DNA of 64,000 nt from a bacterium (GCA_963674965.2 CAXXFL010000001.1:128001-192000), one strand, 5' to 3'. Shown: positions 20,571-30,477, numbered from the stretch's first letter. Numbers and translations are program-made. Notes: a model not told the origin generated them from the sequence alone.

Positions 20571-21107
20571 TCAGACTTTCTTGCTTCTCATTTTCAAAAG
20601 CTCGTCCACTTCCGCGAGCCTTTCCTTGAAGGTCTGGTTGCTTGGCTCCATCTTGATGGCGAGCTGAAGATTGATCTTCGCGCTTTTATAATCTTTATTC
20701 CTGATGCCCGTCTGGGCCATCTGATAATATTTTTTGCCCATGGGCGTCTGGCCCTCGTCCTCGGGCTTGTCGGCCTTGGCCAGCCGGGCGTAAAGCTTGG
20801 GGTTGTAGCGAATGTACTTTTGCCCGTCATCCCCCGAGATGGCCTTGGTATAGGTGGCCCTTTTGTCCTGGTCGGAGAGGACCTTGTAAGCCTCGCAGAC
20901 CCTTTTGAAAATCTTGTTGACCATTTCCACCAGCCGGGGGTCCTCGTTGTAGAACTTGTCGGGATGGAACCGCCTGGACTGGTTGAAGTAGGCCGTCTTA
21001 ATATCCTGGGTAAAGGCGCGCTTTCGCACCTTGAGTATCTGGTAGTAGTCCATCGCGTCTATGGTCTTGGCCAGCGTTATTATTTCCTGTTTTGTCTCGG
21101 CGTCCAT
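20571..21107 (-). CDS. J-domain protein with C-terminal TPR-like helices
   Basis: DYYQIL...FHPDKF...EAYKVLSD (HPD motif); no G/F region or zinc finger. Confidence 0.88.
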   Translation of the reverse strand: MDAETKQEIITLAKTIDAMDYYQILKVRKRAFTQDIKTAYFNQSRRFHPDKFYNEDPRLVEMVNKIFKRVCEAYKVLSDQDKRATYTKAISGDDGQKYIRYNPKLYARLAKADKPEDEGQTPMGKKYYQMAQTGIRNKDYKSAKINLQLAIKMEPSNQTFKERLAEVDELLKMRSKKV

Positions 21108-21169
21108 TTTCTATATAGTCCCCTAATTGGAAAGGATTTTCAGGTTATGCGATCGGCCGCCCAGCGACG

Positions 21170-22765
21170 TCACTCGAGCTGAAGCTCGGGCTTGTAGGTC
21201 TGGACCCCCTCGTCCTCGCCGGAGTGCCTTTCCTTCAGGGCCTGGATTTCCTCCTCCGAGAGTCCTCCGGAGACGTTGAGCTGGACCGAGCGGGCCTTGC
21301 CCGTCTCGCGGTCGCGGGCGGTCACGTTCACGATGCCGTTGGCGTCGATCTCGAAGGTGACCTCGATTTTGGCGTCGCCCTTGGGGGCGGCGGGGATATC
21401 GGTCAGCCGGAACTCTCCCAGAAGCTCGTTGTCCTTGCAGAACCTTTCCTCCCCCTGGAAAATCCGGATTTTGACCGCGGTCTGCCCGTCCCTGGTGGTG
21501 GTGAAAACCCTGCTCTGCTCCGTGGGTATGGGGGTGTTGCGCTCGATCAGGGTGTCCATCAGCCCGCCCGCCGTCTCGATGCCCAGCGACATGGGCGTCA
21601 CGTCCAAAAGCAGCGCCCCGGCGGTGGAGTCGACCAGGGCCGAGGCCTGGATGGCCGCTCCCAGACTGACCACCTCCTCGGGGTCGATGCCGTCCTTGGG
21701 CTCCTTGAAGAAGTAACTCTTGACCGCCTCCTTGACGATGGGCATGTTGGTCGGGCCGCCCACCAGTATGAGAGCGTCCACGTCCTCGACCGTCAGGTGC
21801 GCGTTCTGCAGGGCCTCGTCGCAGACCTTGAAGGTCCTCTGTATAAGGTCGTGGACCATCTGGCCGAAATAGTTGCGGTTCACCGTGAGCTCGAGGTCGG
21901 TGGGACTTCCGTTCACTTGGGTGATCCCGGGCAGGCTGATGGTGGTCTCCAGGTTTTCCACCAGGTCTATCTTGGCCCTTTCAGCGGAGTCCTTCAATCT
22001 CTGGAGCGCGCTCCGGTCGTGCCGGAGGTCGACGTCATGGTCGCGCATGAAGCGCTCGGCCATGTAGTCTATGAGCCGATCGTCGAAGTCGTCGCCGCCC
22101 AGGTACATGTCGCCGGCGGTGGAGATGACCTCGAAAACGTCGTCGCCTATCTCGAGGATCGAGATGTCGAAGGTGCCGCCGCCCAGGTCGTAAACGGCCA
22201 CCTTTTGCTGGAGGCCCTTGCCGAAGCCGTAAGCCAGGGCGGCGGCCGTGGGCTCGTTGATGATCCTGAGAACGTTGAGACCGGCGATGGTGCCCGCGTC
22301 CTTGGTGGCCTGGCGCTGGCCGTCGTTGAAGTTGGCCGGGACCGTGATCACGGCCTGGTCCACGTCATCCCCCAGGTGCTCCTCGGCGATCTTCTTCATC
22401 TCCATGAGGATCATGGCGCTGATCTCGGGACAAGAATACTGACGGTCGTCTATCTGAATCCGCACGCTCTGGTTGGGACCCTCCACGATCGAGTAAGTGG
22501 AAACGGCCATGGCCTTCTTGACCTCGGAACTGAAGAACTTGCGGCCGATCAGACGCTTCGAGGAATATACCGTGCGCTCGGGATTGTGGATGATATGCTT
22601 CTTTGCCTCGTTGCCGACCAGTATCTGGCCGTCATCCAGAAAAGAAACCACCGACGACTGAATCGGATCGCCGTCCGGCCCGTTGATTACCCTGGGCTTT
22701 CCATCCTCCACGTATGACACGCAGGACGTGCTCGTTCCCAGATCGATCCCGACTACTCTACCCAT
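21170..22765 (-). CDS. Hsp70/DnaK-family chaperone paralog (short, no C-terminal lid)
   Basis: [41 protein letters not shown] and EIDANGI; about 531 aa. Confidence 0.93.
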
Positions 22766-22987
22766 ATCCGCTCCTTTTGTACGGTCGATATGCAATAAAA
22801 TACTTCGCCCTAGGCTAACATGAAAACCATGGGCGAGGCAAATAAAATTTCATTGTAATCAGAAGGTTCAACCAAACCGGCCCCTTTTTCGCCCGCGCCG
22901 GGATACCGCCTAGAAGATAAATTCGGCGGACCGGCCGTCAAAGCGGGTCCGCCGAGAAATCCCCTCGATCGGCCTGGCGGAGGATTC

Positions 22988-23815
22988 CTAGAAATTGGCC
23001 CCAACGGTGAAGACCATTCCGTCGTTTACCGTGTTCAAATCCGCCTCGAACTCTCCTTCCTCGTCCTCGGCGTGTATGGCCGTGTTGATGAACCTGTATC
23101 CCAGCCCGAGATGGAGCCATTTATAATCGTAGGTAAGTCCGGCGTCAAGGTCTATATAGCTGGCCGAGTTGTCCTCATAGCCCGCGTACATGCCGCAGAC
23201 CTGGCCGCGAAAGCCGAAGCCGTAGGCCAGGTCCATGGCCCCTCCCAGGCCCAGGACCGGAACGGGCAGGGGGAGGGTCTCGTTCTCGTCCACGTGCCCG
23301 CCCGTCACGTCCTCGGTGCCCTCGTATCCGGCCTCGATTATATATAACTGGGTACCCCAGACCAGCCCGAGTCTTCCCCTGTCCTTGTTCAGGAAGTCCC
23401 ACTCGTCCAGTATGGAAATACGGTCCACGGCGTAGGTGGTGCGAAGGGGCGCGTCAGCCGTCAACTCGTACCCCCCGAACTCGATGGTCCGGCTAAGGAG
23501 GTTCGTGCCGCTGTAGTCGACATGGTAGTACCCCAGGGACAGCCTGTGGTTGGGAAGGGTCTTAAACCAGGCCTGGACCTCGAAAACGTCCTGGGGCGAA
23601 TCGAGACCCAGGTCGTCCTCCATGTCCAGCTTGTCGCCGATGACGACGCCCGTGTCCCCCACCTGGTCAACGTCGCGAACCTCGGCGTCGCCCGAGAAAC
23701 CAGCTATCCAGTAATTGACACTGATCCCGCCTTTATACTCGTCCTCCGCGGCCGAGGCCCGCGAGCAAGCTATCATGGCGACCATGACGGCCATCCAGAT
23801 AAACGCCCTTTTCAT
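22988..23815 (-). CDS. outer-membrane beta-barrel protein
   Basis: signal peptide; amphipathic strands; LEDDLG-like and PLPVPVLG motifs; C-terminal TVGANF. Confidence 0.7.
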   Translation of the reverse strand: MKRAFIWMAVMVAMIACSRASAAEDEYKGGISVNYWIAGFSGDAEVRDVDQVGDTGVVIGDKLDMEDDLGLDSPQDVFEVQAWFKTLPNHRLSLGYYHVDYSGTNLLSRTIEFGGYELTADAPLRTTYAVDRISILDEWDFLNKDRGRLGLVWGTQLYIIEAGYEGTEDVTGGHVDENETLPLPVPVLGLGGAMDLAYGFGFRGQVCGMYAGYEDNSASYIDLDAGLTYDYKWLHLGLGYRFINTAIHAEDEEGEFEADLNTVNDGMVFTVGANF

Positions 23816-23860
23816 GTCTTTCCTCCTTGTGATGGTCGTTCCCCTGTAAGGTCTTGGTAT

Positions 23861-23889
23861 ATGCTAGCCAAATTGGGAAATGGATGCAA
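23861..23889 (-). promoter_or_regulatory. sigma70-like promoter for the beta-barrel gene
   Basis: TTGCAT-17 nt-TAGCAT on the minus strand. Confidence 0.55.
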
Positions 23890-23929
23890 CCAAGTCCCCA
23901 ATTTTTTCCCTTTCAAACCCGGGCCGGGC

Positions 23930-25423
23930 CTAGAAGTACACCGGGATGCAGGTGCAGATGGTGTCGCAAGAGCACCCTATACCGCCGATGGGCCCGCCGA
24001 AGCCCGGGAACGTCGGCGTGTCCGTGCCGGTAAAGGGCTCGATATAAGTGCCCGGTATGCAGTCGCAGGTACACTTGACGCCGGCCGGAAGCTCCACGTC
24101 GCAGGGCACGGTGTAATTTATGGTCTTGCCGCCCTTGGTCGCGTACTTGAACTGCCGGGCCTTGTTCTCGGGGCGGTTGGCCTGGAGATCGATCAGGCAG
24201 CTCGCCATTTCCTCGCCGCTCTCGTCCCAAACCATAATCGTTCCGTCCCACATGCCCGAGACGATGGTCTTGCCGTCCGGGCTCACGGCGATGCTTTTGA
24301 CCGTGTTGATGTCGCCGTGGAATTTCTTGAGCAGCGCGCCCGAGGAGGCGTCCCATATTTTGACGGCCTTGTCGTTGCCGCCGGAGACGATGCTTTTCCC
24401 GTCGGGCAAGAAGGCTATCGCCGTGACCCATCCCTTGTGGGCCTCGATGGTCTTGGCTTTCTGGGGGGTGGCGATTTTCCTGATCTTGACAATGCCCTCC
24501 CTGTCGGCCGAGGCCAAAAGCTGGTCGTCGGCGCTCAGGGCCACCGAGGTCACGGGCTCGCGATGGACCTTGATATCGAGCGAGTGTCCTCCCTTCTCGA
24601 TGCCCCAGAGCTTGACGGTCATGTCGTCCGAGCCCGAGGCCAGGGTCTTGCCGTCGGCGCTGAAGGTTACCGTGTTGACGTGGCCCGCGTGTCCCTCCAG
24701 CGTTTGAATAAGGGCCCCGGCCTTTACGTCCCAGAGCTTGATGGTCCCGTCAAAGGAGCCCGAGGCGGCTATCCTGCCGCCGGGATTGACCGCCACCGAG
24801 CGCACGTAATTGACGTGCCCCTCCATCGTCTTCAGTTCTTTTCCGGTTTTGGCGCTCCAGGTTTTGACCAGGTTGTCGAACCCTCCGGACACGATCGTAC
24901 TTGCGTCCGGCGTGAAGCATACCGAGGCCACAATATCCGAGTGGGCCTTCTCGATTTTTTTAATCAGCTTGCCCTTGGCCACGTCCCAGATTTTTATCAC
25001 CTTGTCCTTGCTCGAGGTCACCAGTTTCGAGCCGTCGCGGCTCAAGGCCACGCAGGTGATGGTGTCCACGTGGGCCAGGATGGGACTGCACTTGCCGGTG
25101 TTTTCGATCTCGGCTTTTTCCTCGTCCTTGACCTCGGTGGGAGTCAGGGACACCGGCTCGCCGGGCTTTGCCGACGAGGTGGACCCGTCTTCCGACCCCG
25201 GCCCGCCCTTGCCGATGGGCTGGGGCTTTTTCCTCCCGCCGGGCTTTTCCTTGCACGAGTAGGCGGCGGCGGCGGCGAAAAGAGAGCCGGCCACCAGGAA
25301 ACCCCGGCGACCCGACCGCCAATTCGCGGAGAGGTCTTTTAGCTCGTATACGCGCGGTTCCTCCGACCTCCCGTCCTCGAGGCGTTTTTCCAGAATGAAC
25401 CTTGGTCTTTTCAAGTCCGTCAT
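23930..25423 (-). CDS. Tat-exported lipoprotein with 7 WD40 repeats and a Cys-rich C-terminal tail (candidate radical SAM substrate)
   Basis: SGRRGFL twin-arginine motif, h-region ending AYSC, seven (G/A/V)H...W(D/S/G)-type repeats (two degenerate), tail with 9 Cys; AGGAG RBS. Confidence 0.85.
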   Translation of the reverse strand: MTDLKRPRFILEKRLEDGRSEEPRVYELKDLSANWRSGRRGFLVAGSLFAAAAAYSCKEKPGGRKKPQPIGKGGPGSEDGSTSSAKPGEPVSLTPTEVKDEEKAEIENTGKCSPILAHVDTITCVALSRDGSKLVTSSKDKVIKIWDVAKGKLIKKIEKAHSDIVASVCFTPDASTIVSGGFDNLVKTWSAKTGKELKTMEGHVNYVRSVAVNPGGRIAASGSFDGTIKLWDVKAGALIQTLEGHAGHVNTVTFSADGKTLASGSDDMTVKLWGIEKGGHSLDIKVHREPVTSVALSADDQLLASADREGIVKIRKIATPQKAKTIEAHKGWVTAIAFLPDGKSIVSGGNDKAVKIWDASSGALLKKFHGDINTVKSIAVSPDGKTIVSGMWDGTIMVWDESGEEMASCLIDLQANRPENKARQFKYATKGGKTINYTVPCDVELPAGVKCTCDCIPGTYIEPFTGTDTPTFPGFGGPIGGIGCSCDTICTCIPVYF

Positions 25424-25437
25424 GCTTGGCGCTCCTT

Positions 25438-26772
25438 TTAAGACCCGCCCGGAAGGCTTCCTCTCCAGACGCCTCCCCCGGACGAGATGTATTTCAATAA
25501 CAAATACTTGGTCAACTCGCGGTTAACGCGGCACCTGGGCGTCGGCTTGAACTTGTCAGGCCCGGACTCGGAAAAGGTCTTGGCCATGCAATCGCCGGCG
25601 CAGTGCCACTTGCAAAAGCATTCCCTACAATACTCTAATCGCTCGGGCGCTCGCGAGTCAAGTAGGGACCGCAATTTATTTTTATCCAGTACCGGACGGC
25701 CGCTCTCATCGATCCTTCCGAAGAAAAAATGGCGGGCCAGGGGATGGCGCGAACTGTAGACCTCGAAGCAGGCGGTCAACTCGCCCCGCGGCGTCACCAC
25801 CAGGGATTCCGATCCCGCCCGGCAGAAGCGGCCCGAGGTTATCTCGGGACGGGCGCCCGAGTAGACAAGAGCCACGCCCCGCCGGAGGCAGAGGTCGTGG
25901 GCCGACTTGAATTCCTCGATGAAACGGTCGAGGCTTTCCTCGCCCATCCACTCGCCGCCACCCCTTCCCTGGGGAAAAACGGGCTCGACCTGGATTTTCC
26001 TGGGGCCGGCGTTGTCCAGGACAAACTTTACGCTCGAGGCGAACTCGGGCATGGATATCTCGTCCGCCGTGATCCTGACGCCGTAATGCAGCCCTTTGCG
26101 GTCGAAGGTCTCGATGGTCTTCATCACCGCCTGGAAGGAACCGCCGCCCGACCGGGAGGGTCTTTGCCGGTCCTGGATATGGGCTGGCCCGTCCAGGGAA
26201 AGGCTCACTCCGTCCAGGTTCTCGGCTATCCACTCGGCTTTTTCCCTCCCATAAACCCCGTTGGTGGCCATGGACACGAGGGAGGGCAGGGCCTTTTCCC
26301 GGACGCGGGAGACGGCGGCCCGCATGGTTTCCCAGTTCATGGTGGGCTCGCCGCCGCCGTGGAAGGCCAGCTCGAAATGGCTCGAGAAGCGGCTTTGGGC
26401 CGAGTCGTGGGCGAAGTCCACCGCCGCCAGGGCGAGTTTGGCGCCCATGTCCTCGGGCGGCTCCTCGCCCGAGGAAGCGTAGCAGTAGGCGCAACTGAGG
26501 TTACAGCGGTTGGTAAGGAAGAGGGTGGCCCCCATCGGCAGGTAGTTGTCCCCGGGCTCGGGCCGGGCAGGAGGGGGGTCCGGCCGCAGGAAACCGATCT
26601 CCTCGAGGAAGGACGAGGCTTTCGACCCGTCGCCCTTTCCTCCCTTTTCGAGAAGCTCGGCCGTCAGGTTGGCCATGGCCCGGTTGCCGACGAAAGCCGT
26701 CCTGATCAGGGGCCGATACAAGATCAGCTTTTCCTCGAAGGGTATCTCGAATATCTCCGGAAGGGAAGCCAT
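25438..26772 (-). CDS. radical SAM/SPASM-domain protein (peptide/protein maturase type)
   Basis: CNLSCAYC (CxxxCxxC), FHGGGEP, TNG, LSLDGP; SPASM C-x12-G-x4-C...C-x2-C-x5-C-x3-C-x18-C. Confidence 0.93.
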   Translation of the reverse strand: MASLPEIFEIPFEEKLILYRPLIRTAFVGNRAMANLTAELLEKGGKGDGSKASSFLEEIGFLRPDPPPARPEPGDNYLPMGATLFLTNRCNLSCAYCYASSGEEPPEDMGAKLALAAVDFAHDSAQSRFSSHFELAFHGGGEPTMNWETMRAAVSRVREKALPSLVSMATNGVYGREKAEWIAENLDGVSLSLDGPAHIQDRQRPSRSGGGSFQAVMKTIETFDRKGLHYGVRITADEISMPEFASSVKFVLDNAGPRKIQVEPVFPQGRGGGEWMGEESLDRFIEEFKSAHDLCLRRGVALVYSGARPEITSGRFCRAGSESLVVTPRGELTACFEVYSSRHPLARHFFFGRIDESGRPVLDKNKLRSLLDSRAPERLEYCRECFCKWHCAGDCMAKTFSESGPDKFKPTPRCRVNRELTKYLLLKYISSGGGVWRGSLPGGS

Positions 26773-27060
26773 GCAAGTCTCTCTTATATTTATACGCTCG
26801 AAAGGATATAAACTTCTTTTCCCGAGAGTATACACCGAACGGTCGGGCGGGTTCCAATCCGGGCGGGCGCCGGCGTCGGACTTCCGCCGCCCGGGGTCCA
26901 AAAGACGCCTCGCGAAACGTTATCCGGCGCCGCTTGCCCGGGAAGTATCCCGGTGGTATAAGCGTAAAATCGCGTGGCCCGGGCTCTTTTCGCCGGGCCA
27001 GGGGCCGTGTCAAAAGGACGGGGCAGTTTTACCGTCAGTCGTGACCGATGGAGCGAGAGC

Positions 27061-28356
27061 ATGAAAAGCAAGGCGGCAAGGACCTACCTGGCGGCGGTTT
27101 TCTTCGCGGCGATTTTTCTTTCGGGCGCTACATTCGACATGTACGAGGCCATGGACCGGATATGGGAATGGAAGAAGCCCGACCCATATCCATATCCGCT
27201 GGAGGAGTTGGACGCCGAGACCCTTTCAGTCCTCCTGGACGCGGGCAACCTCCAGTGGTACGAGCCGCGTCCGGAAAAAGGCCAGTGGGACGCCGCGGTG
27301 GGAATGAAGGTCCACGCCGCTCCTCAAACCGTCTGGAGCGTAATCACGGACTACGAGGCGCCCTGCCGGATAATGAGCAAGACCTTCCTCGAGTGCAAGA
27401 GCGAGCGGGTATCCGACGACAAGGTTAAAAACGAATACAAAATTATCACCCGGGTCCTCGAGTTCGGCTCGACCTTCGACATGATCGACGAGGTCACGGA
27501 GAAGCCCCCCTATTTCCAGCGGATCGAGACGGTCGAGGGGGGCCTCGAGGGAAGAGTGGTGACCATTACCCTCATTCCCGCCGACGGGGGAAAGACGACC
27601 CTGGCCTTCATGCGCTACTACGCCTCGATGAGGTCCCTGGGCCTGGCCATGAGGGCCGTGCTGGCGGTGGTCCCCGCCGCCGAGTGGCCGGTGGCGGCCG
27701 CCAGCGCCAATTATCACCTCACCACCCACGGCATGGAAGCCGAGCGGATCGAGGGCTATCGGCGCCCGGAAAAGCCGGGCGATTTAAAGCACGACAAGCT
27801 TGACATGGAAACCCTGGCCCGCCTCGCCCGGTTCAACGCCGGCCTTATTCGCGAAACCCCGGAGGGAAAGACCGTCGACGGGCTGGCCTACGCCTTTATC
27901 GACGCTCCCCCCGGAGTCGTGTACGGTATCCTCGAGGACCTGGAGCATTACGACGAGAACCTCCAAAACCAGAAAACAGCGGTGGAAAAACGGGAGGGGA
28001 ACAAGGTATGGGTCACGCAGAAAATAACCTCGCAGTCGGTCCTGGTTTTCACCTTCTCCTACGAGATGCACGCCCTTTATCAGCTCGACCCGCCATACCA
28101 CGTCTCCTACCGGGCCATTGACGGGACCTACGAGGGAAGCACGGGAGACTTCAGGATCGTTCCCCTCGACGGCGGCGAGCGCTGCGCGCTTTTCTGCCAA
28201 ATAGGGATAAACTTCGAGCGCGACTCCGCCCTTACCACGAGGATCATCAGGTCGGGCGATTATCCTTTCAGCACCGTGATGGACCTGATAGCCGCGAGGA
28301 CCTACTTGAATAGCATTAAACCCCTGGCGGAAAAAAGGGCCAGGGAAGGCGGCTGA
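27061..28356 (+). CDS. exported protein with two SRPBCC/START-like (polyketide cyclase-like) domains
   Basis: N-terminal hydrophobic signal; VHAAPQTVWSVITDYE and IDAPPGVVYGILEDLEHY domain starts. Confidence 0.7.
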   Translation: MKSKAARTYLAAVFFAAIFLSGATFDMYEAMDRIWEWKKPDPYPYPLEELDAETLSVLLDAGNLQWYEPRPEKGQWDAAVGMKVHAAPQTVWSVITDYEAPCRIMSKTFLECKSERVSDDKVKNEYKIITRVLEFGSTFDMIDEVTEKPPYFQRIETVEGGLEGRVVTITLIPADGGKTTLAFMRYYASMRSLGLAMRAVLAVVPAAEWPVAAASANYHLTTHGMEAERIEGYRRPEKPGDLKHDKLDMETLARLARFNAGLIRETPEGKTVDGLAYAFIDAPPGVVYGILEDLEHYDENLQNQKTAVEKREGNKVWVTQKITSQSVLVFTFSYEMHALYQLDPPYHVSYRAIDGTYEGSTGDFRIVPLDGGERCALFCQIGINFERDSALTTRIIRSGDYPFSTVMDLIAARTYLNSIKPLAEKRAREGG

Positions 28357-28364
28357 AGACGGCG

Positions 28365-28405
28365 AAAAAAAGGACCGGCGTCAAATCCCCGGCGCCGGTC
28401 CTTTT
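28365..28405. terminator. bidirectional Rho-independent terminator
   Basis: AAAAAAAGGACCGGCG...CGCCGGTCCTTTT between convergent genes. Confidence 0.85.
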
Positions 28406-28424
28406 ATGACTTGTCCGCGTTCTA

Positions 28425-29567
28425 TTATCTGATTTTTCTCGCCGACTTGGTTTCTCCCCGCAGCGGATTGGGGACCTTGACCACGAAGGTGATCCTTCTG
28501 TTCTTGGCCATGCCCTCGGGCGTGTCGTTGGTGGCGATGGGCTCGTACTCGCCCTTGCCGACGGCGCTGAGCCGCGCTTGCTCGACCCCGGCGTTAACCA
28601 GGAACTGCATGACCGACCCCGCCCTCTTCTCGGAGAGGACCTGGTTGGACTCCTCGCTGCCCCTGGAGTCGGTGTGCCCCTCGATGGTTATCTCGACCTC
28701 GGGGTTGGCGTTCATGACCGAGGCAATTTCCTCGAGCATGTCGTTGTACTTGGGCTTGATGTCCCACTTGCCGGTGTCGAACTGGATGTCGTAAATGGTC
28801 CAGCACCCGAAGTCGTCGATGCTGGCGCCGTAGGGGGTGTTGGGGCACTTGTCCACCGAGTTGTGGACGCCGTCCATGTCCCTGTCCTCCTTGGCCCCGA
28901 AAAAGGCGTTGCCGATGAACTTCTCCATGTTGCCGGCCGTGTCGATCGACCCCGAGGTGGTGCCGAAACCGCAGGCGCTGCCTCCGGCCTCCCGGATTTT
29001 CTGAAGTTGCTTGCCGCCCCGGTCGGACTTGCCCACCTGGATGGTGTAAATGCAGGCCGTGCCGTTATAGTGGTTCTTCAGGTTCTCCGCCTCCTTCACG
29101 GGGTCGTCCGAGTCGCTCAGGCTCCCGTTACTGACGATGATTACGGCCAGGTTGCCGCTGATCCCGTTGGAGGAAAGATCGTCGCGCAACGCGCGAAGGG
29201 CGTCGGACAGGTTGGCCTTGCCGGTCCTGGGCTTCATCGACTCGACGGCGTCAACGAAGTTGGACTCGTTAAAGCCGGCCCATTGCTGGGGGGTCCTTAC
29301 CTCGTTGCTGGGAAGACCGTACTCGTAAACGGCCCCCTTAAGTCCGATGTCGGTGGGAAGCTCCTCGCAGAAAATCTTGGACACCTTGCGAGCGAGGTAG
29401 TTGTGGCTCTGGTTGCGGAAAGTCTTGTTCATGTCGAATGACTGGTCCACGAGAAGAGCGAAGTTCTTATAGCGGGCGGCCCTGCTCGCGTTGGCCCCGT
29501 CGGCGCCGATGAGGACCGCCACTAAAGCGAGGGCCATAATCAGGCATATAGGTTTGACTGTTCTCAT
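28425..29567 (-). CDS. OmpA-family peptidoglycan-binding protein with N-terminal vWA-like domain
   Basis: signal peptide; LLVDQS; DRDMDGV...DKCPNTP...GC repeat; IEGHTDSRGS...NQVLSEKRA...NRR. Confidence 0.88.
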   Translation of the reverse strand: MRTVKPICLIMALALVAVLIGADGANASRAARYKNFALLVDQSFDMNKTFRNQSHNYLARKVSKIFCEELPTDIGLKGAVYEYGLPSNEVRTPQQWAGFNESNFVDAVESMKPRTGKANLSDALRALRDDLSSNGISGNLAVIIVSNGSLSDSDDPVKEAENLKNHYNGTACIYTIQVGKSDRGGKQLQKIREAGGSACGFGTTSGSIDTAGNMEKFIGNAFFGAKEDRDMDGVHNSVDKCPNTPYGASIDDFGCWTIYDIQFDTGKWDIKPKYNDMLEEIASVMNANPEVEITIEGHTDSRGSEESNQVLSEKRAGSVMQFLVNAGVEQARLSAVGKGEYEPIATNDTPEGMAKNRRITFVVKVPNPLRGETKSARKIR

Positions 29568-29641
29568 AAAAAAATCCTCCTTGTTTTCTTTGTTACCCCA
29601 AAGAGTCCTTAAAATTATCCCCCAATTGTTAAGCGAAAGTT

Positions 29642-29670
29642 ATTTTAGCCGCTGGATTGGGGTTTCGCAA
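29642..29670 (-). promoter_or_regulatory. sigma70-like promoter for the OmpA-family gene
   Basis: TTGCGA-17 nt-TAAAAT on the minus strand. Confidence 0.5.
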
Positions 29671-29700
29671 GTATGGATGGACGAAAAAAGCCGGGCCCCA

Positions 29701-30477
29701 TCAAAGGGACCATTGTCCCTCCAGCAATTTCAGCGAATTGGAGGGCGCGCCGAGATGGAAAGCGATAAACGGCGATAGGATGTCCATGGACTGGGCAAGG
29801 GAGTTGCGAGTGAAGTTGACCCGGGCCAGCACGCTCTCGTCGGCCTCCATGACCCAGCTCAGGGTCCGCGAGGTATCGGGCGACAGGCCCCTTTCCATGC
29901 CAACGGGAACTTGCCGGCCCTTCTCCTTTGCCCGGCATTCCTCGCACAGTCCGCCCCCAAGGGAGGCGTCGAAACGGCAGCCGCGCTCGAGGGCGCTTTG
30001 GCCGCAGGCCACGCAGCCGGCGACCCTGGGTTCGTAACCTAGTTCTTTGAGCAGCCGGAAGGAGTAGGCCGCGGCCCACCGGTCGGAGTCCGGTTCCCGG
30101 CGCAGGCGGAGGAGTCCGGACAGGAGCGCGTGAAAGGCCGCTGGTGAAGGTTCTTGGGCGGGGGCGGCCATGCCGATTATCTCGAGCAGCAGACAGGCCC
30201 GGGCGAGTCGTCTCGGGTCCTTCCTGAACTCGGGAAAGCCATCGATCAGCCGGGCGTGCTCGAGAATCAGCCGTCCTCCCCGCGGCGAGGTCACGAAGCC
30301 GGCCTCGATGAGGTGGACGAGGTCGAGGGCCCCAACGAACCTTTTTTTGCTGCGGAGGGCTCCCTTGGCCAGGGCCTCGATCCGCCCCCCCTCGGGAGTG
30401 AAGAGCCCGACCGCCAGGTCCGACTCTCCCTCGGGCCTCGTTCCCAGCACCAGGGCCGCCGACTCGAACCTGGTCAT
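29701..30477 (-). CDS. recO: DNA repair protein RecO
   Basis: ESD, AKGALRSKKRF, LGYEP and CVAC...CEEC zinc finger. Confidence 0.92.
   Translation of the reverse strand: MTRFESAALVLGTRPEGESDLAVGLFTPEGGRIEALAKGALRSKKRFVGALDLVHLIEAGFVTSPRGGRLILEHARLIDGFPEFRKDPRRLARACLLLEIIGMAAPAQEPSPAAFHALLSGLLRLRREPDSDRWAAAYSFRLLKELGYEPRVAGCVACGQSALERGCRFDASLGGGLCEECRAKEKGRQVPVGMERGLSPDTSRTLSWVMEADESVLARVNFTRNSLAQSMDILSPFIAFHLGAPSNSLKLLEGQWSL

Follow-up and report, generated by a model that had tools for sequence, protein, structure and literature searches.

A radical SAM/SPASM enzyme paired across bacterial phyla with a WD40 propeller protein whose cysteine-rich tail is its probable substrate

A stretch of 64,000 nucleotides of bacterial DNA (GCA_963674965.2, CAXXFL010000001.1:128001-192000; hereafter the window, in whose own coordinates all positions are given) carries on its minus strand, between 23,930 and 26,772, the two adjacent genes that are the subject of this work. 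One encodes a radical S-adenosylmethionine (SAM) enzyme of the SPASM type, and the other a protein in which a leader-like stretch and a probable twin-arginine translocation (Tat) signal precede a seven-bladed WD40 propeller and a cysteine-rich tail. We consider it likely that this tail is the substrate of the enzyme. The enzyme gene stops at TAA (25438-25440), 14 nt before the ATG of its partner at 25423, with AAGGAG inside the spacer; a preliminary description of the window, made from the sequence alone, had named the two genes as one unit with this gap and a ribosome-binding site, and both open reading frames (ORFs) are as it gave them.

Results

The enzyme resembles thioether-forming maturases

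The enzyme gene can be read from a TTG as an ORF of 25438..26901 on the minus strand, and the ATG at 26772, taken here as its start, agrees with the N-termini of 24 aligned homologues. Its product is a member of the radical SAM superfamily, with 53 bits against Pfam Radical_SAM (PF04055; cut-off 29.5), and it also matches Fer4_12 (PF13353) with 29.5 bits (cut-off 22). The preliminary description took it for a complete radical SAM/SPASM enzyme, and it proved to be one: the CxxxCxxC motif and seven later cysteines (C317, C335, C382, C385, C391, C395 and C414) are invariant in all 25 aligned sequences, and, judged by the alignment of this seven-cysteine motif to the SPASM part of CteB, the enzyme is of the SPASM type. 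In its AlphaFold2 model (mean pLDDT, the predicted score of the local distance difference test, 87) the N-terminus contains three strands (8-12, 15-20 and 25-29) and then two helices (31-42 and 51-58). We call this part an RRE-like domain, after the recognition element of ribosomally made, post-translationally modified peptide (RiPP) enzymes, and the label comes from likeness to CteB and from Dieter et al. (2026, PMC13692751), not from a family hidden Markov model (HMM).

With a profile of 25 family members, the best solved relative was CteB (5wgg; E 1.7e-40), and SkfB, ChlB and the anaerobic sulfatase-maturating enzyme anSME came next. The best fold matches of the enzyme model were likewise CteB chains, aligned over 450-464 columns, CteB N-terminus included, with template modelling (TM) scores of 0.71-0.77. 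Among the NCBIfam families the top scores belong to thioether maturases, and the list runs from the SCIFF maturase (TIGR03974; 115 bits, cut-off 425) and the PapB family (NF047865; 110.5 bits, cut-off 340), through the nif11-type family (96.8 bits, cut-off 518.7), QhpD (TIGR03906; 89.4 bits, cut-off 453) and anSME (TIGR03942; 70.2 bits, cut-off 349.45), to TIGR04463, the CrpC family (51.9 bits, cut-off 525). From its sequence and its model, the enzyme thus appears to be a RiPP maturase of the thioether-forming kind, equipped with a leader-binding domain, and it lies outside every curated family. Of 8000 scored candidates, 936 proteins belong to its own family at E <= 1e-10; the majority have no database name, or are called only 'radical SAM protein' or 'uncharacterized protein'.

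The partner joins a leader-like stretch, a probable export signal, a propeller and a cysteine-rich tail

The preliminary description had laid out the second gene as a leader, an RRGFL motif, a lipobox cysteine, a charged linker, seven WD40 blades and a tail with nine cysteines. This layout stood in all its parts, a leader-like stretch included, except for the lipobox, the A-Y-S-C at that place being non-canonical. Pfam WD40 (PF00400) matches seven stretches of the protein (224 bits), which makes it a WD40 propeller, and in its AlphaFold2 model 28 strands form seven four-stranded blades between residues 122 and 410, with pLDDT mostly above 90. Beyond the last blade, L410, D412, G432, T438 and P440 of the junction are nearly invariant in a full-length alignment of 32 sequences. 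The last 89 residues hold the nine cysteines (C409, C441, C451, C453, C455, C484, C486, C490 and C492), and the tail is organized in two blocks, C441...C451-x-C453-D-C455 and C484-x-C486-D-x-x-C490-x-C492. In the same alignment C453 is invariant, and C441, C451, C455, C484, C486, C490 and C492 are nearly so. Residues 448-497 have a pLDDT below 50 in the model, and the tail is likely to be disordered until it is modified, which is what one expects of a peptide-like substrate.

Across 32 tails we counted 150 CxC units, in which the residue after the second cysteine is V (66), N (47), D (21), Q (9) or I (7). Asparagine, aspartate, glutamate or glutamine stands at position +3 from 85 of the 278 tail cysteines, the background being 9.3%, and in the window's tail the C-x-x-[N/D/Q] spacing appears as C-T-C-D and C-S-C-D. 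The recurrence of this spacing suggests that the residue three positions after a cysteine could be the acceptor of a cross-link.

A profile built from 12 tails matched 798 proteins at E <= 0.001 (among 8000 scored), nearly all of them WD40 proteins, and their names are confined to 'WD40 repeat protein', 'hypothetical' and, once, 'tail fiber domain-containing protein'. The window's tail alone (residues 400-497), searched against a set of 5.8 billion proteins, matched only itself, sharing too few exact words with its relatives.

Two observations concern the surroundings of the tail. Many of its longer relatives (P0133, P0148, P0167 and P0184, for example; 570-1040 aa) extend beyond the cysteine motif into an additional C-terminal domain, assigned to Pfam PF13884 in the database, and there the cysteine-rich stretch is internal and not terminal; the same holds at loci L092-L096, L104, L105, L117 and L145. 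In the window protein, C112 (25088-25090), before the first blade, and C409 (24197-24199), within a conserved C-L-x-D after the last blade, flank the propeller; most of the 32 aligned relatives keep both, and a disulfide between them might close the propeller, or they might have a role in the modification.

The leader is conserved and is predicted to bind the enzyme

In the 44 relatives in which our script detected a twin arginine followed by a hydrophobic stretch, the approximately 35 preceding residues conform to either of two related patterns. In the 32-sequence alignment R39 never varies and P23 and R40 hardly do, and in an 18-sequence alignment of N-termini both arginines are invariant; P23, nearly invariant there too, keeps a fixed distance to them. 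The leader is conserved across phyla, and a similar N-terminus is found on the short partners described below. A comparison of long-form with short-form leaders by hhalign covered 28 columns (48% probability, E 1.8e-4), and a common origin of the two forms is suggested by their sequences.

A complex of the enzyme with partner residues 1-40 was modelled in three runs, which scored 0.74, 0.38 and 0.74 (median 0.74), versus 0.00 for the best of three controls; the mark set for this tool is reached by 58 of 80 solved complexes and by 2 of 110 mismatched pairs. Residues 4-31 of the leader are placed against residues 6-55 of the enzyme and against parts of 381-435; at least 60% of the contacts are common to the runs, and the partner has a pLDDT of 43-64. 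The model supports binding of the leader by the RRE-like domain. The leader of the preliminary description has thus gained in strength, both from the conservation of its N-terminal residues across phyla and from the complex model.

Immediately after the leader come the twin arginine and a hydrophobic stretch that ends in ...AAAYSC (C57), with a helix at 39-56 in the partner model; the region that precedes the twin arginine, 38 residues long, is unusually long for the n-region of a signal. The genome contains a TatC gene. On the conserved RRxFL motif, the helix and this gene, export through the Tat pathway is probable.

The pairing recurs in other genomes

An enzyme-seeded scan, with one genome per species, gave 80 loci of 437 confirmed matches, and 50 enzyme loci (L007-L055 and L062) with a near full-length match of at least 30% identity were examined. 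A cysteine-rich partner stands beside the enzyme in 41 of the 50. In 17, the same leader, twin arginine and tail occur in a protein of about 450-1300 aa, encoded on the same strand at a distance of at most 4.3 kb, and all five of these long partners that were scanned contain Pfam WD40. At one locus, L009, which is archaeal, the partner is not a WD40 protein but ends in the same tail motif, and 23 loci have a short cysteine-rich ORF of 58-240 aa, recognized by its CxC-repeat pattern in 15 cases and by cysteine density in eight. At two loci, both from Thiotrichaceae, there is only a 42-aa ORF with one cysteine.

The preliminary description had proposed to ask whether homologues of the tail neighbour this radical SAM clade, and the reverse search bore the expectation out. 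A metagenome scan seeded with the tail motif alone returned 401 stretches, 247 of them confirmed, and the best 80 were kept. The ORF with the tail also resembles the WD40 core of the window protein in 71 of these 80 loci, and 47 of the 80 carry a family enzyme (at least 30% identity, E <1e-10); 28 have a flank too short to judge. The enzyme lies within 250 nt on the same strand in 31 of the 47 and overlaps the tail gene in four only by over-extended ORF calls, which makes 35 direct same-strand neighbours; it is 0.4-4.3 kb away in the remaining 12, one of which is on the opposite strand. The set contains duplicates (L113/L114, L108/L062 and L164/L020), and L144 and L157 lie on one contig.

The type of partner follows the phylogeny of the enzyme. 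In trees of 111 enzymes (FastTree) and 94 enzymes (a quick IQ-TREE search), the smallest clade that holds all 51 enzymes paired with a WD40-tail protein has 57 members, the other six (L007, L009, L024, L026, L039 and L042) being labelled as without such a partner ('none'). This clade has a Shimodaira-Hasegawa (SH)-like support of 99 in FastTree and an SH-aLRT (approximate likelihood-ratio test) support of 99 in IQ-TREE, and all 22 of the 22 short-partner enzymes fall outside it. According to the labels given by the tool, its named members belong to Acidobacteriota, Thermodesulfobacteriota, Bacteroidota, Pseudomonadota, Lentisphaerota, Armatimonadota, Cyanobacteriota, Actinomycetota and Vulcanimicrobiota. 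No other small precursor was found as a conserved neighbour within the WD40 clade.

Some loci depart from the plain two-gene arrangement. (i) Two tandem WD40-tail genes follow a single enzyme at L020 (7370-8782 and 8840-10180), L088 (2226-3722 and 3807-5291) and L164. (ii) In the two Thiotrichaceae loci, whose enzymes belong to the WD40-type clade, the 42-aa ORF is conserved about 205 nt downstream (L039:1970-2098 and L042:7325-7453); it has a leader-like stretch and a single cysteine near its end (…GCSPN), and may be a minimal substrate. (iii) Near the WD40-tail genes of 17 loci lies an ORF of about 150 aa (for example L020:10291-10734, L100:3866-4318, L139:1488-1976 and L158:6568-7029) with, as read by eye, an N-terminal RRxFF-like motif and a C-terminal PqqD-like part. 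L158, which carries it, is a tail locus with no radical SAM match. A single query with this protein found no match in the window's genome, which does not by itself show its absence there. (iv) Enzymes of sister clades stand in larger operons (L021, L025, L027, L028, L033, L035, L044-L046, L048, L050 and L054), in which the enzyme is followed by a cysteine-rich peptide of 96-224 aa, often by a lipoprotein, and then by further ORFs. The peptide has 10-20 cysteines in CxC repeats and ends in ...PVH, or in HYWYPN in related loci such as L034 and L038. Judged from their N-terminal sequences, ORFs of about 500 aa, in 13 loci, are like B12-binding radical SAM proteins, and others, in 12 loci, are like peptidase U32. 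Scans of ten partner proteins against NCBIfam and Pfam gave no family for the short cysteine-rich ORFs or for the tails.

Table 1. Coordinates of the features of the gene pair in the window.
Feature	Coordinates	Strand	Basis or remark
Radical SAM/SPASM maturase gene	25438..26772	minus	444 aa from ATG at 26772
RRE-like N-terminal domain, enzyme residues 1-60, three strands then two helices	26593..26772	minus	AlphaFold2 model
CxxxCxxC (C90, C94, C97), motif of the SAM-cleaving [4Fe-4S] cluster	26482..26505	minus	Invariant in 25/25 aligned sequences
SPASM region, seven cysteines C317-C414, two auxiliary clusters (predicted)	25531..25824	minus	Invariant columns; aligns to CteB SPASM
Spacer, 14 nt, with AAGGAG ribosome-binding site inside	25424..25437	minus	Sequence read directly
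Partner (putative substrate) gene, 497 aa	23930..25423	minus	ORF; aligned with 31 full-length relatives
Leader-like stretch, residues 1-38	25310..25423	minus	P23 nearly invariant, at fixed distance from the twin arginine
Twin arginine R39 R40 (RRGFL) and hydrophobic helix to C57; probable Tat signal, possible lipobox	25253..25309	minus	
Charged low-complexity linker, residues 58-112	25088..25252	minus	pLDDT <50 at 55-103; length and sequence vary among relatives
Seven-bladed WD40 beta-propeller, residues 113-410	24194..25087	minus	Pfam and AlphaFold2
Post-propeller junction, residues 411-440, modelled beta-hairpin	24104..24193	minus	Strands 422-428 and 434-440, pLDDT 57-80
Cysteine-rich tail, putative core, residues 441-497	23933..24103	minus	Two motif blocks

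The neighbourhood of the pair and a related genome

The window's genome contains one enzyme of the family and, by the tail profile, one tail-bearing protein. Upstream of the pair lies a gene in the opposite orientation (26974..28356) with an SRPBCC/polyketide-cyclase domain, the divergent gene of the preliminary description; downstream, after a gap of 114 nt, a gene on the same strand (22988..23815) matches weakly an outer-membrane beta-barrel family. This downstream gene had been called separately promoted, a claim that could not be confirmed: a scan of the 114-nt gap gave no promoter-like or terminator-like site. The statement that no short precursor, peptidase, ABC exporter or sulfatase is adjacent was borne out: none of the last three was found among the five neighbours scanned, and a search of 21000-30000 for small ORFs (20-120 aa, with CxC or at least four cysteines) returned only the antisense mirror of the tail. 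We considered the upstream SRPBCC and downstream barrel genes as parts of the system, and this was upheld for neither: they were not among the 14 most widespread ORF clusters, of which only the merged enzyme/partner cluster contained ORFs from the window. Just past the barrel gene, at 20571-22795 on the minus strand, the translations read as a 541-aa Hsp70/DnaK-like ORF and a 178-aa ORF with a J-domain-like start.

A search of 30 related genomes gave one match, in G003, which belongs to the same family. The matching ORF (L168; G003:C71, 955-2319, minus strand, 454 aa) joins approximately the first 262 residues of the enzyme in frame with the last WD40 blades and the tail. The enzyme part is 50% identical to that of the window, and the SPASM domain, the leader and the signal are absent; L168 looks like a deletion remnant or an assembly artefact. 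A database protein, P0190, to which PF04055 and PF00400 are both assigned, may be similar to this fusion.

Discussion

We propose that the two genes are an enzyme-substrate pair and form a RiPP-like pathway that acts on a whole protein. The domain anatomy, the recurrent pairing, its agreement with the enzyme trees and the conservation of leader, twin arginine and tail are findings of this work; leader binding comes from a model, and chemistry, order of events, cleavage and function are inferred. The complete course of events laid out here, with its chemistry, export and cleavage, we hold to be moderately probable. In the cytoplasm, the RRE-like domain of the enzyme would bind the leader of the partner (approximately residues 4-31, as modelled), and the enzyme, by means of its three Fe-S clusters, would modify cysteines of the disordered C-terminal tail. 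In a closed seven-bladed propeller the ends of the chain are usually near each other, so that binding of the N-terminal leader would at the same time present the tail at the C-terminus. The likeliest product would be intramolecular thioether links of the ranthionine type, between a cysteine and a nearby side chain; the relatives of the enzyme and the C-x-x-N/D spacing point to side-chain thioethers above other products, and, provided that the tail is the substrate, we hold this chemistry to be moderately probable. The Tat pathway would then export the folded, modified protein. The leader being placed in the n-region of the signal, signal peptidase I or II would take off both leader and signal with a single cut, and this, with Tat export, would explain why there is no dedicated gene for a leader peptidase or an exporter. 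The mature product would be a periplasmic or envelope-attached WD40 propeller with a cross-linked cysteine-rich appendage, which, as a guess, might serve as a rigid, protease-resistant or metal-binding module.

The conserved association of the two genes is silent on the chemistry, and the same pair could make sactionines (cysteine to C-alpha), C-C or C-O links, epimerized residues or, like anSME, oxidized cysteines. Several SPASM enzymes score comparably (anSME, with its 70 bits, the SkfB family, cyclophane formers and DynA), and SkfB and anSME are the next-best solved relatives. However, the enzymes closest in both sequence and fold are those that form thioethers of the ranthionine type (CteB, the SCIFF family and the PapB family), what is conserved in the tail is cysteine, with acid and amide residues enriched at +3, and among the five neighbours scanned there is neither a sulfatase gene nor a sulfatase-type motif. 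We regard a different chemistry as unlikely. A further reading takes the tail to be mainly a metal or Fe-S module, which would explain export by Tat, with the radical SAM enzyme assembling or inserting the cofactor, or acting elsewhere. Tat commonly carries cofactor-bearing proteins, and the two blocks of four close cysteines are conserved beyond what a mere substrate would seem to need. The authors of the work on the cysteine-rich protein CrpA suspect metal binding by their product (PMC13692751). But the enzyme has the full layout of a RiPP maturase (RRE-like domain, radical SAM domain and SPASM region) and is nearest to peptide cross-linkers, and the conserved leader, a predicted ligand of the RRE-like domain, is not easily accounted for if the enzyme inserts a cofactor; short partners with 10-20 cysteines and no signal peptide share it. 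We judge this reading improbable; metal binding by a cross-linked product is compatible with the pathway that we propose.

The adjacency might also be incidental, the real substrate being an unrecognized small peptide or the product of a gene far from the pair; the WD40 protein would then be an exported propeller like any other, with a tail rich in disulfides. WD40 and radical SAM proteins are both abundant, two tail loci have no enzyme, and the Thiotrichaceae members of the clade have only the 42-aa ORF nearby. Against this, the pairing recurs in at least nine phyla and in both directions of search, no small cysteine-containing ORF other than the antisense mirror of the tail surrounds the pair of the window, the genome has exactly one family enzyme and one tail protein, and leader, RR motif and tail are conserved together. 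We disfavour chance adjacency and give it very little credence.

A number of points weigh against an enzyme-substrate pair of the kind proposed, or against parts of it. (i) The enzyme reaches the cut-off of no curated NCBIfam family, and its match to Pfam SPASM (PF13186), 21.3 bits, falls just below the cut-off of 21.5. The chemistry of the modification we infer from sequence and from relatives. The first tail motif of the window deviates from the consensus of the family, and valine follows the second cysteine in 66 of the 150 CxC units, so that the acceptor rule leaves units uncovered. (ii) One of the three runs of the complex scored only 0.38, the fold of the partner in the model is itself uncertain, and the pass may come from the model's memory of solved RRE-leader complexes such as CteB-CteA. 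(iii) Seven of the 50 enzyme loci have no partner (four of these have little flank), and for the genome loci we set the partner labels ourselves, with regular expressions and by inspection. L151 and L158, with at least 1.5 kb of flank on both sides, have no radical SAM match, and three tail loci have only weaker or truncated ones. The trees come from quick or FastTree searches, and related sequences are not independent. (iv) The Tat HMM TIGR01409 does not match the window copy; it passes one of ten N-termini scanned and is below threshold in six more. The A-Y-S-C of the window (C57) fails the strict lipobox pattern [LVI][ASTVI][GAS]C, and a lipobox-like motif is present in 14 of 44 relatives with a loose pattern and in six of 44 with the strict one. 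Lipoprotein character was therefore not upheld as a trait of the family, and the case from sequence for a lipid anchor on the window protein is weak. (v) The system seems to be dispensable, G003 apparently keeping only an in-frame remnant; such a patchy distribution is usual for accessory gene clusters.

The nearest precedent is the CrpC/CrpA system. As described in the main text of its report (Dieter et al. 2026, PMC13692751), CrpC of Methanococcus voltae is a TIGR04463 SPASM enzyme with an RRE and a neighbouring substrate, CrpA, a 29-kDa cysteine-rich protein with a leader-like N-terminus and C-terminal cysteine repeats of the form C-X-X-Q/D, in which CrpC installs ranthionine cross-links, as detected by mass spectrometry. 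The preliminary description did not recognize the window pair as a characterized pathway and could not exclude a prior description, a caution that was apt, given this 2026 paper in which a different radical SAM family cross-links a cysteine-rich protein (PMC13692751). The two systems share a protein-sized cysteine-rich substrate with a leader-like N-terminus beside a SPASM enzyme, and the +3 enrichment in the tails of the window family resembles the C-X-X-Q/D spacing reported for CrpA (PMC13692751). In contrast to CrpC, the window enzyme lies outside TIGR04463, and in its partner a Tat-like signal and a seven-bladed propeller stand between leader and core. In the main text of that paper no mention of WD40, propeller or signal peptide was found (PMC13692751).

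CteB/SCIFF (TIGR03974) and PapB have the layout of RRE, radical SAM domain and seven-cysteine SPASM region that the window enzyme is predicted to share, and form thioethers on cysteine-rich cores. Their substrates are short free peptides. In the window, by contrast, the core is fused to an exported propeller, the enzyme scores far under the cut-offs of both families, and no SCIFF-like small cysteine-rich ORF lies nearby. In the quinohemoprotein amine dehydrogenase (QHNDH) complex, a cross-linked small subunit sits with a seven-bladed propeller subunit, QhpB; the two are separate polypeptides, with a quinone cofactor derived from tryptophan and with a dedicated protease and exporter. By analogy, QhpD/QhpC and the QhpB propeller may be seen as a conceptually split version of the fused protein of the window, whose tail has no tryptophan. 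QhpD, also a radical SAM/SPASM enzyme, cross-links cysteines of the small subunit in the cytoplasm, before export (PMC13692751, main text). A further solved relative of the window enzyme is anSME, and, unlike in the anSME system, no sulfatase was found among the five neighbours scanned. This SPASM enzyme modifies a cysteine or serine of a full-length exported protein before its export; it has no RRE, and it makes formylglycine in a sulfatase motif.

A full-text literature search found no work in which radical SAM enzymes are connected with substrates of the WD40 or Tat kind, and Supplemental Data set 1 of the CrpC/CrpA paper (PMC13692751), which lists further single- and multi-domain relatives, may include such pairs. 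One hit, PMC7159879, was set aside, as the passage concerned mentions radical SAM in an unrelated context. The window pair would be a radical SAM/SPASM cross-linking system that acts on a protein substrate, distinguished by a leader inside a Tat-like signal and by a propeller between leader and core. That it represents a widespread, so far undescribed class of 'protein RiPPs' we put forward tentatively, as a proposal about as likely to fail as to hold, if not slightly more so: at least 798 tail proteins, with named loci in nine or more phyla, would carry a leader for a dedicated radical SAM cross-linker in the n-region of a Tat signal, with a whole propeller setting it apart from the core, signal peptidase as leader peptidase, and a stapled product.

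Most studies of thioether stapling by enzymes have dealt with short peptides, and the first biochemical example found with a larger cysteine-rich protein, from another enzyme family, dates from September 2026. If our reading is true, stapling extends to folded, exported beta-propellers in many bacterial phyla, and a recognition sequence, an export signal and a cleavage site are combined in a single N-terminal segment. The protein of the window would join in one chain the counterparts of two QHNDH subunits, the propeller and the cross-linked peptide, and its role in the envelope might be a new one, whether redox, metal-binding or structural. With two genes, a defined tail and no accessory genes in this genome, the pair is a simple system for testing, and hundreds of entries now named 'WD40 repeat protein' or 'hypothetical' would gain a testable description.

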